NCBI GenBank assembly: GCA_963711735.1 | Contig: CAVQFA010000005.1 | Span: 135,525 to 199,524 of the forward strand | Source of the DNA: Candidatus Gottesmanbacteria bacterium | GTDB taxonomy: Bacteria; Patescibacteriota; Microgenomatia; UBA10105; UBA927 | DNA: 64,000 bases | Direction of reading: 5' to 3' | Shown: piece after piece, positions 31,001 to 34,000 of the stretch | Numbering within the stretch: the first letter of the stretch is position 1 | Layout: each line of letters starts with the position of its first letter | Translations under genes and position numbers: made by a program | The notes under the pieces: model-generated | Told to the model about the DNA's origin: nothing | Databases searched by the model: none | The model's input: only the letters and a program-made list of their open reading frames with translations

Positions 31001-34000
31001 CTTTCAGGACCGACAGGCGCAACCGGTGCAACAGGTTCCACAGGCGCAACAGGCCAGGCAGGTCCCACAGGCGCAACCGGGTCAACGGGCGCAACAGGTC
31101 TTTCCGGTCCTACCGGATCAACAGGTTCCACAGGAGCAACCGGTATTTCCGGACCAACAGGTGCAACAGGAGTCACCGGTGCAACGGGTAAATCCGGTCC
31201 AACCGGAGCAACCGGTGTCACAGGAGCAACAGGACTTTCCGGTCCGACAGGATCAACCGGTGCAACCGGTATCTCAGGACCAACCGGATCAACAGGATCC
31301 ACGGGTGCAACAGGACAGGCAGGTCCTACAGGATCAACCGGAACTACCGGAGCAACCGGACTTTCGGGTCCCACAGGAGCAACGGGTTCCACAGGAGCAA
31401 CGGGTATTTCCGGACCAACAGGTGCAACAGGAGTCACCGGTGCAACGGGTAAATCCGGTCCCACAGGAGCAACCGGTGTCACAGGAGCAACAGGTATGAC
31501 AGGTCCGACAGGATCAACCGGTGCAACCGGTATCTCAGGACCAACAGGTGCAACAGGATCCACGGGTGCAACAGGACAGGCAGGTCCTACAGGATCAACC
31601 GGAACTACCGGAGCAACCGGACTTTCGGGTCCCACAGGAGCAACGGGTTCCACAGGAGCAACCGGTATTTCCGGACCAACAGGTGCAACAGGAGTCACCG
31701 GTGCAACGGGTAAATCCGGTCCCACAGGAGCAACCGGTGTCACAGGAGCAACAGGACTTTCCGGTCCGACAGGATCAACCGGTGCAACCGGTATCTCAGG
31801 ACCAACCGGATCAACAGGATCCACGGGTGCAACAGGACAGGCAGGTCCTACAGGATCAACCGGAACTACCGGAGCAACCGGACTTTCGGGTCCCACAGGA
31901 GCAACGGGTTCCACAGGAGCAACCGGTATTTCCGGACCAACAGGTGCAACAGGAGTCACCGGTGCAACGGGTAAATCCGGTCCAACCGGAGCAACCGGTG
32001 TCACAGGAGCAACAGGACTTTCCGGTCCGACAGGATCAACCGGTGCAACCGGTATCTCAGGACCAACCGGATCAACAGGATCCACGGGTGCAACAGGACA
32101 GGCAGGTCCTACAGGATCAACCGGAACTACCGGAGCAACCGGACTTTCGGGTCCCACAGGAGCAACGGGTTCCACAGGAGCAACCGGTATTTCCGGACCA
32201 ACAGGTGCAACAGGAGTCACCGGTGCAACGGGTAAATCCGGTCCCACAGGAGCAACCGGTGTCACAGGAGCAACAGGTATGACAGGTCCGACAGGATCAA
32301 CCGGTGCAACCGGTATCTCAGGACCAACAGGTGCAACAGGATCCACGGGTGCAACAGGACAGGCAGGTCCTACAGGATCAACCGGAACTACCGGAGCAAC
32401 CGGACTTTCGGGTCCCACAGGAGCAACGGGTTCCACAGGAGCAACCGGTATTTCCGGACCAACAGGTGCAACAGGAGTCACCGGTGCAACGGGTAAATCC
32501 GGTCCCACAGGAGCAACCGGTGTCACAGGAGCAACAGGACTTTCCGGTCCGACAGGATCAACCGGTGCAACCGGTATCTCAGGACCAACAGGTGCAACAG
32601 GATCCACGGGTGCAACAGGACAGGCAGGTCCTACAGGATCAACCGGAACTACCGGAGCAACCGGACTTTCGGGTCCCACAGGAGCAACGGGTTCCACAGG
32701 AGCAACCGGTATTTCCGGACCAACAGGTGCAACAGGAGTCACCGGTGCAACGGGTAAATCCGGTCCCACAGGAGCAACCGGTGTCACAGGAGCAACAGGA
32801 CTTTCCGGTCCGACAGGATCAACCGGTGCAACCGGTATCTCAGGACCAACAGGTGCAACAGGATCCACGGGTGCAACAGGACAGGCAGGTCCTACAGGAT
32901 CAACCGGAACTACCGGAGCAACCGGACTTTCGGGTCCCACAGGAGCAACGGGTTCCACAGGAGCAACCGGAATTTCCGGTCCCACAGGAGCAACAGGTTC
33001 CACAGGCGCAACAGGCCAGGCAGGTCCCACAGGAGCAACCGGTGTCACAGGAGCAACAGGACTTTCCGGTCCGACAGGATCAACCGGTGCAACCGGTATC
33101 TCAGGACCAACAGGTGCAACAGGATCCACGGGTGCAACAGGACAGGCAGGTCCTACAGGATCAACCGGAACTACCGGAGCAACCGGACTTTCGGGTCCCA
33201 CAGGAGCAACGGGTTCCACAGGAGCAACCGGTATTTCCGGACCAACAGGTGCAACAGGAGTCACCGGTGCAACGGGTAAATCCGGTCCCACAGGAGCAAC
33301 CGGTGTCACAGGAGCAACAGGACTTTCCGGTCCGACAGGATCAACCGGTGCAACCGGTATCTCAGGACCAACAGGTGCAACAGGATCCACGGGTGCAACA
33401 GGACAGGCAGGTCCTACAGGATCAACCGGAACTACCGGAGCAACCGGACTTTCGGGTCCCACAGGAGCAACGGGTTCCACAGGAGCAACCGGTATTTCCG
33501 GACCAACAGGTGCAACAGGAGTCACCGGTGCAACGGGTAAATCCGGTCCAACCGGAGCAACCGGTGTCACAGGAGCAACAGGACTTTCCGGTCCGACAGG
33601 ATCAACCGGTGCCACAGGAATTTCCGGTCCCACGGGAGCAACAGGGGTCACCGGAGCTACTGGAATTTCCGGTCCCACAGGAGCAACCGGTGTCACAGGA
33701 GCAACCGGTAAAACAGGTCCTACAGGATCAACGGGATCAACCGGAATTTCCGGTCCCACAGGAGCAACAGGTTCCACAGGCGCAACAGGCCAGGCAGGTC
33801 CCACAGGAGCAACCGGTGTCACAGGAGCAACCGGTCTTTCCGGTCCGACAGGTGCAACAGGTTCAACAGGAGCAACCGGTCTTTCCGGTCCCACGGGAGC
33901 AACAGGGGTCACCGGAGCTACTGGAATTTCCGGTCCCACAGGAGCAACGGGTGTTACAGGAGCAACCGGTAAATCCGGTCCTACGGGATCAACGGGATCA

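Follow-up and report, generated by a model that had tools for sequence, protein, structure and literature searches.

We analysed a 64,000-nucleotide (nt) stretch of DNA, referred to here as the window, from a Candidatus Gottesmanbacteria bacterium (assembly GCA_963711735.1, contig CAVQFA010000005.1, positions 135,525 to 199,524 of the forward strand). Near its middle, a single giant open reading frame (ORF) for a collagen-like protein contains an array of ten near-identical 261-nt tandem units. The array is probably a recently expanded, concertedly evolving block in the outer third of a giant membrane-anchored fibre stalk made by a Gottesmanbacteria-like cell.

Tandem Repeats Finder reported a 261-nt period over 31020..33867, with 10.9 copies, 93% matches, 0% indels and a score of 4800. 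In the coding register, the array and the units that border it are as follows:

31046..33655, plus strand: array of ten 261-nt units, each encoding 87 amino acids (aa), i.e., 29 Gly-X-Y triplets.
30785..31045, plus strand: degenerate 5' flanking unit, 60% identical to the array consensus.
33656..34177, plus strand: two degenerate 3' flanking units, 65% identical to the array consensus; they contain the 33742..33826 partner of a variant tract in unit 8.

Each of the ten units was 92 to 100% identical to the array consensus with 0 indels, and the mismatches per 261 nt were, from unit 1 to unit 10, 21, 6, 3, 5, 5, 0, 0, 15, 0 and 16. The flanking registers starting at 30785, 33656 and 33917 were merely 60 to 65% identical to the same consensus. 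Identity at a lag of 261 nt reached 0.94 to 1.00 at about 31.1 to 33.2 kb, compared with 0.26 to 0.72 in the remaining collagen-coding region; therefore, the 261-nt signal stands far above the 9-nt Gly-X-Y background. The Pfam Collagen family (PF01391) matched the whole array with an E value of 6e-130 and one unit with an E value of 8e-17. The array shares one trait with length-polymorphic collagen-like surface proteins of the variable-number tandem repeat type (BclA, Lcl and Scl): its tandem DNA units are near-identical, and their length preserves both the reading frame and the Gly-X-Y register (10 x 261 nt, 29 x 9).

Units 6, 7 and 9 are exactly identical. Units 2 and 5, three units apart, differ by 1 nt and are the only ones with a Met-Thr variant, a clustered 5-nt patch (GGACTTTCC to GGTATGACA) that replaces Leu-Ser. 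Units 3 and 4 differ by 2 nt, and units 1, 3 and 4 share a Ser variant. The largest departures from the consensus are a 15-nt-difference tract of unit 8 and both edge units. An earlier note on this DNA had placed about ten near-identical 261-bp units at 31047..33650, within a fibre-type protein, and had proposed a self-alignment to check them. Comparison of the units bore this description out: the copies are near-identical rather than divergent, the boundaries were accurate to a few bases, and the array is coding, in frame and collagen-like. The same note described the Leu-Ser/Met-Thr position as alternating, which is wrong, since Met-Thr is confined to units 2 and 5.

Coding on the minus strand was also considered, where an ORF of 1,006 aa (30919..33939) runs antisense to the array. 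It was rejected because its openness is due to collagen codon composition and because the plus frame carries the Pfam hits there and is continuous with the terminal domains. Long open frames antisense to collagen DNA, or in other plus frames over it, are by-products of codon composition and not genes to annotate.

The codons of the array point to a short history. Where residues are identical between aligned units, the same codon was used at 0.90 of them, and at essentially all of them in the core units. Codon identity at matching residues between a unit and the rest of the same collagen domain was 0.41. Protein-level constraint does not explain this synonymous identity (0.90 versus 0.41), and the copies are therefore young or being homogenised. 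Repeat structure was taken from k-mer diagonals, as generic repeat finding gave pseudo-families offset by 9 nt and self-BLAST gave one merged hit. By this analysis, identity at a lag of 783 nt (three units) was 99.2%, higher than the 97.7% at a lag of 261 nt. The variants follow the order Ser, Met-Thr, x / Ser, Met-Thr, x along the array and, together with the higher identity at 783 nt, this indicates that a three-unit block was duplicated, with additional copies of single units alongside it. Two further pairs of matching segments were found in the gene:

32968..33052, plus strand: variant tract of unit 8, 85 nt, 100% identical to 33742..33826 in the diverged 3' flank.
26948..27993 and 28097..29142, plus strand: second recent duplication in the array gene, 1,046 nt, 99.8% identical, with a spacing of 1,149 nt (383 aa), from k-mer diagonals.

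All 15 differences of unit 8 fall in its one tract, and from the letters the sharing of that tract with the 3' flank reads as a signature of gene conversion or mosaicism. The 783-nt duplication and the 85-nt shared tract suggest recent expansion with gene conversion. Recent expansion or conversion had been proposed beforehand and gains further support from the codon homogeneity. A third, more diverged copy of the GGEGTL...GGGGM break motif of the 1,149-nt duplication lies near 30158.

The gene that carries the array ("gene B") encodes the following parts:

25010..38164, plus strand: giant collagen-like fibre gene, a single ORF of 4,384 aa that contains the array, with no frameshift over about 930 Gly steps.
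25028..25324, plus strand: two tandem excisionase/MerR-type helix-turn-helix (HTH) domains, aa 7-105, predicted to be cytoplasmic.
25610..25669, plus strand: single transmembrane (TM) segment, aa 201-220, preceded by KNNGKK.
25799..34210, plus strand: collagen-like domain of 2,804 aa, with about 930 Gly-X-Y triplets and four in-frame breaks.
34229..34438, plus strand: conserved post-collagen junction, the signature of the gene family, present too in a paralogue at 14662.
36407..36904, plus strand: beta-rich domain with the motif GVVSTxPG...GRVPVxV...GDxxTSSxxxGxxMKAT.
37703..37897, plus strand: H-type lectin domain near the C terminus (Pfam PF09458, E value 3.5e-7, 30.7 bits, cutoff 24).

The N-terminal pair matched Pfam HTH_17 (PF12728; E value 3e-19, 69.4 bits, cutoff 27) and MerR (E value 6e-16), in two stretches each. 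In NCBIfam it matched TIGR01764 "excise" (E value 6e-16, 58.5 bits, cutoff 28.8), with weaker matches of the BldC/HspR type. Residues 201-220 contain the sole strongly hydrophobic 19-mer of the 4,384-aa protein (Kyte-Doolittle score 2.73), and an N-in/C-out topology, i.e., a type II membrane protein, would be the simplest reading of this arrangement. The known anchoring modes (exosporium-binding N-terminal domain, LPXTG and cleaved signal peptide) were not matched; tandem HTH domains and one TM segment stand in their place. No LPXTG was visible when the C-terminal sequence was read by eye.

The Y position of the stalk triplets is occupied by Thr in 77% of cases and by Ser in 15% (Thr or Ser in about 92%). 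At the membrane-proximal end of the stalk there are 20 acidic residues per 261 aa; their number declines along its length, and the array, which forms the distal third, has 0. The array is slightly basic, with one Lys per unit, is richer in Leu, Ile and Val, and is otherwise uncharged. Applying the established collagen-helix value of 0.286 nm per residue, we infer lengths of about 25 nm for a unit, about 250 nm for the array and about 800 nm (about 0.8 µm) for the full stalk.

The C-terminal region comprises 1,328 aa, and H-type lectin was its only Pfam match; Pfam subscans and NCBIfam over the region gave nothing beyond it, and a PDB sequence search gave no match. An AlphaFold model covering residues 700-1255 of the region had a mean predicted local distance difference test (pLDDT) score of 68 and contained two confident domains. 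One is the lectin domain, with block pLDDT values of 64 to 97, mostly above 90, whose modelled fold matched Helix pomatia and Helix aspersa agglutinins and discoidins (probability 1.0, E value about 1e-3). Helix pomatia agglutinin and lectins like it of the H type form trimers. The other is the beta-rich domain (block pLDDT mostly 78 to 98, many above 90), which is common to the paralogues in the window and to many Patescibacteria surface proteins, and whose fold weakly resembles those of phage decoration proteins and of pre-mature phi29 gp12 (E values 5e-4 to 2.5e-3). A possible modifying enzyme is encoded next to the fibre gene:

22520..24337, minus strand: PMT_2 (GT-C, protein O-mannosyltransferase-like) and TPR protein, divergent and directly upstream of the array gene.

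Judging by its domains, this protein is a candidate O-glycosyltransferase for the Thr/Ser-rich stalk. The PMT_2 neighbour is not conserved beside the relatives of the gene at three loci (L001-L003).

In the mechanism that we propose, whole units would be gained or lost by misaligned homologous recombination or replication slippage between the 261-nt copies, which are 98 to 100% identical. Because 261 equals 29 x 9, the reading frame and the Gly-X-Y register are kept at each gain or loss, and consequently the stalk becomes longer or shorter and the gene is not broken. On/off phase variation was rejected, as the unit length is a multiple of both 3 and 9. A stalk of about 800 nm would change by about 25 nm with each step. 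Three chains, each anchored by one N-terminal TM helix and with the tandem HTH domains in the cytoplasm, would wind into a triple helix that is rich in Thr and may be O-glycosylated; its nucleation would probably start at the conserved junction and the C-terminal region. The H-type lectin tip would bind sugars on another cell or surface, and the length of the array would set its reach.

The gene belongs to a family with the order HTH-TM-collagen-junction. A local hidden Markov model run on fetched loci found the tandem HTH fused in one ORF to the collagen domain and the junction in at least 20 loci. The best relatives were 30 to 42% identical in the C-terminal region and 60 to 81% identical in the junction. 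An exact 68-nt piece of the unit was absent from JGI metagenomes, and the N-terminal 263 aa gave no match at an E value of <=1e-5 in a database of 5.8 billion sequences. Exact look-ups of the giant protein and of two neighbouring proteins likewise gave no match. Across the family the collagen domain ranges from 19 to about 1,020 triplets, and by this comparison of sequences it appears to be the variable module. Relatives carry near-identical arrays of their own (189 nt x ~28, 171 nt x 2-3, 567 nt x 2.3 and 135 nt x 2), with unit lengths that are nearly all multiples of 9 nt. Family members (MEK7577680/MEK7577679, OY970230.1 and OY969569.1 among them) share the domain order, the junction motif, the C-terminal modules and the presence of near-identical collagen arrays, whereas each lineage has arrays with a unit length and a unit sequence of its own. 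Their annotations go no further than "MerR family regulator" or "H-type lectin domain protein," and we found no literature linking collagen-like proteins to the candidate phyla radiation, Patescibacteria or Gottesmanbacteria. Two of the arrays are the following:

OY970230.1, locus 3430..8679 (L007): 189-nt x ~28 collagen array on a complete chromosome of Candidatus Gottesmanbacteria, with about 19 consecutive copies 99.5 to 100% identical.
8885..9437 (L001/L002) versus 7937..8318 (L003): 171-nt unit arrays of a homologue, three versus two copies.

The L007 gene has two +1 phase shifts, at 7827 and 7891. A related gene, L008 (OY969569.1), is without the 189-nt unit and has one -1 shift, at 7137. 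The versions of the homologue with the 171-nt unit (P0124 and P0001, from three ENA assemblies) are nucleotide-identical except for one clean 171-nt unit, with 3 versus 2 copies. These are short-read assemblies, so a real 171-nt polymorphism is indistinguishable from a loop-count error. For the prediction in the earlier note that copy number varies from strain to strain, this one-unit difference and the lineage-specific arrays of the family offer support by analogy only. In an NCBI metagenome-assembled genome (MAG), the same homologue is split inside its 171-nt array into two partial proteins, MEK7577680.1 and MEK7577679.1.

Several points weigh against an expanding, length-varying stalk segment as we have described it. 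The triple helix, the trimeric state, surface exposure, glycosylation and lectin activity are all things that we infer, and the length variation may be neutral rather than adaptive. Single-protein scans of genome, metagenome and viral contigs yielded no close relatives of the array gene and hence no second allele, and the two-versus-three difference of the homologue comes from short-read assemblies, which are unreliable for counting identical 171-nt repeats. Moreover, the consensus is poor in 1..10405 of the window, and polishing may have homogenised the array copies or miscounted the three identical units. In that stretch the Gly-X-Y phase shifts 45 times (37 by +1, 2 by +2 and 6 by -1) with one glycine lost, and the junctions look hybrid, e.g., GGAGCAATC-C-GGACC. 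From this pattern the shifts are probably consensus error in a long-read assembly, which the contig of the window looks like; a decayed pseudogene was considered unlikely for this stretch, given the 45:1 ratio of frameshifts to lost glycines. Short reads gave an independent view. The Logan short-read assembly of ERR12037368 encodes proteins identical to those of three genes in the window, and its contigs map by coordinate arithmetic to about 14599..20980, about 21578..26104 and 33806..42036. One contig thus ends 305 nt into the collagen region (26104) and the next starts about 150 nt past unit 10, at 33806, which is the end of the repeated 85-nt tract. The warning in the earlier note that assemblers would have trouble here therefore holds: the gap independently confirms that 26104..33806 is repetitive and is silent on copy number. 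With these observations in hand, we considered whether assembly or polishing could have given the existing array a false copy number, a false near-identity or both. This seems unlikely to us. In its favour, the frameshifts of 1..10405, in a collagen stretch of the same window, are error-like and not decay-like, three identical units are uncountable without spanning reads, the ERR12037368 contigs fail to cross the region, and the gene of the homologue was broken within its array in the MAG. On the other hand, the array has zero indels, the whole 13-kb ORF is in frame, and comparable arrays occur in independently assembled relatives, complete chromosomes included. The ten units also comprise eight distinct variants in a nontrivial order, and at least 8 of the ten copies are therefore anchored by unique sequence. 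We judge the array to be real; the count of the three identical units and their exact identity still hinge on spanning reads.

Three other readings of the array were considered. Identical 87-residue units could reflect selection for a strictly periodic stalk, in which they would serve as docking sites about every 25 nm or as a lateral-packing period for a partner or for bundling. In keeping with this idea, every unit has one Lys and the same arrangement of Leu, Ile and Val residues at its X positions, in contrast to the acidic proximal stalk, and repeat number influences binding and self-association in Lcl (PMC6460258). However, the identity at synonymous sites (0.90 to 1.0 versus 0.41) goes beyond protein-level selection, and unit lengths and sequences in the relatives are unrelated, so that no period is conserved; we regard such selection as quite improbable. 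A phage origin, in which the window would be a phage or prophage and host range would be tuned through the effect of the array on the length of a tail fibre, appears less probable still, to the point of being very doubtful. Some phage fibres do contain collagen-like segments, paralogues in the window match tail-fibre PHROGs and Peptidase_S74, and the modelled C-terminal region weakly resembles phi29 gp12, pyocin fibres and tailspikes in fold (E values 2.5e-3 to 4e-2). Conversely, that region had 0 PHROG matches, as had the noncollagen neighbours of the gene, among which no phage structural, packaging or replication genes were found. The neighbours are of cellular type: a pilin-like N_methyl protein, CarboxypepD_reg proteins, the PMT_2/TPR glycosyltransferase and TrmB, together with WxL-interacting-like proteins, toxin-antitoxin genes and an HTH_17 multipass membrane protein. 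Homologues of the C-terminal region bear Patescibacteria names (Parcubacteria, Moranbacteria, WWE3, Sungbacteria and Daviesbacteria). When species-representative genomes were searched for the junction motif, 48 loci were recovered, some of them on complete chromosomes of 1.0 to 1.1 Mb; where a title names a lineage, it is mostly that of a Candidatus Gottesmanbacteria, Microgenomates or Patescibacteria MAG. No locus was recovered when 2.9 million viral contigs (IMG/VR) were searched in the same way. The best homologue of the same architecture (P0001/P0124) adjoins leuS, comEA and comEC on the chromosome, and an N-terminal HTH with a membrane anchor is not the architecture of a virion protein. 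Cellular neighbours, chromosomal homologues and absence from viral contigs together indicate a chromosomal gene of an ultra-small bacterium, and any implication in the earlier note that "fibre 2" was a phage fibre fails. The Peptidase_S74 and tail-fibre-like C-terminal modules of the paralogues probably prompted the label.

The third reading concerns the cytoplasmic end of the protein and gives the fibre a possible role beyond that of an adhesin. The family-wide cytoplasmic tandem HTH is the most unusual feature of these fibres. Because this end is a BldC/excisionase-type HTH pair, and because at least 20 loci retain the HTH-TM-collagen fusion, the protein might be a membrane-tethered DNA-binding device that relays contact or tension at the lectin tip, up to about 0.8 µm away, to the chromosome. 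By analogy, the relay may follow a ToxR/CadC-like logic or a Notch-like release after cleavage. We regard this as an improbable reading; if it were true, how far away an ultra-small, host-dependent bacterium can sense its partner would depend on the copy number of the 87-residue unit.

As an expanding segment of a stalk, the array can be compared with known collagen-like systems. Streptococcus Scl1 and Scl2 and the collagen-like proteins of Pasteuria are surface stalks of variable length, with a globular domain by which they attach to host surfaces. Scl proteins have a C-terminal LPXTG anchor and an N-terminal globular domain, whereas the order is reversed here (N-terminal membrane anchor and C-terminal head) and the protein is an order of magnitude larger. 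BclA, the nap glycoprotein of the Bacillus anthracis/cereus exosporium, is a small protein whose repeat units are short and whose triplets number in the tens. As described in PMC10470788 (citing Sylvestre 2003), a strain-specific number of triplets sets the filament length of BclA, its stalk is Gly-X-Thr rich and glycosylated, and its C-terminal domain promotes trimer formation. The Thr-rich Y position (77% Thr here) and the collagen region as the variable part are common to both proteins. However, BclA attaches to the spore basal layer via a 38-residue N-terminal domain, whereas tandem HTH domains and a TM anchor are found here, along with about 930 triplets, 87-residue units and an H-type lectin tip, in a nonsporulating Patescibacteria lineage, and outside the Gly-X-Y region there is no sequence homology. 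In Lcl of Legionella pneumophila, isolates differ in how many in-frame collagen repeats they have; the number scales with binding, aggregation and biofilm formation, and the C-terminal noncollagen domain is required (PMC6460258). Lcl has about 11 to 18 short repeats and a signal peptide and is secreted or associated with the outer membrane, unlike the 261-nt units and the different anchor described here. Moreover, its repeat polymorphism was seen among isolates, whereas the present gene is known from one allele. The collagen-like genes of Pasteuria are discussed in PMC7743900. The mechanism of the array is thus an ordinary one, of the BclA/Lcl type, and what is unusual is its carrier, an undescribed family of giant HTH-anchored collagen-lectin fibres.

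The window holds four giant collagen-like genes (1..18435, 25010..38164, 40270..50082 and about 60500..64000), which make up about 70% of its 64 kb. All four have related junction and C-terminal modules, and the tandem-HTH N terminus occurs only in the array gene. The genes at 40270 and about 60500 have hydrophobic, signal-peptide-like N termini; the gene that ends at 18435 has its N terminus either outside the window or within the frame-shifted stretch. From 10405 to 18435 the frame of this gene is constant, with a Peptidase_S74 match in its C-terminal region; if it is one gene, it exceeds 18 kb. Other features in the window are the following:

38381..40273, plus strand: HTH_17 (excisionase-type) domain fused to a multipass membrane protein with an extracytoplasmic domain.
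55282..59577, minus strand: run of secreted or anchored proteins, with one weak match to a WxL-interacting-protein peptidoglycan-binding domain (25.6 bits, below the Pfam cutoff of 27.3).
59685..60442, minus strand: small gene pair, HTH_17-type antitoxin-like (60113..60442) and PIN-like toxin-like (59685..60110), assigned by eye.

Judging from the first of these, HTH_17 proteins tethered to the membrane seem to recur in the genome, and the second may be another cell-surface gene cluster.

These genes carry a practical warning, since short-read MAGs break or split them and the long-read consensus can be poor there. At the same time, the repeat arrays offer a simple handle, by polymerase chain reaction or k-mer depth, on fibre-length variation between populations. 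Cells of Patescibacteria are very small. Their genomes are about 1 Mb, yet about 70% of a 64-kb stretch is spent here on four giant collagen-like genes, and one of the fibres, predicted to end in a lectin, has a predicted length of about 0.8 µm, which exceeds that of the cell. The partners and the attachment machinery of such organisms are mostly unknown, and these giant fibres are candidates for the structures with which they contact their hosts or attach.

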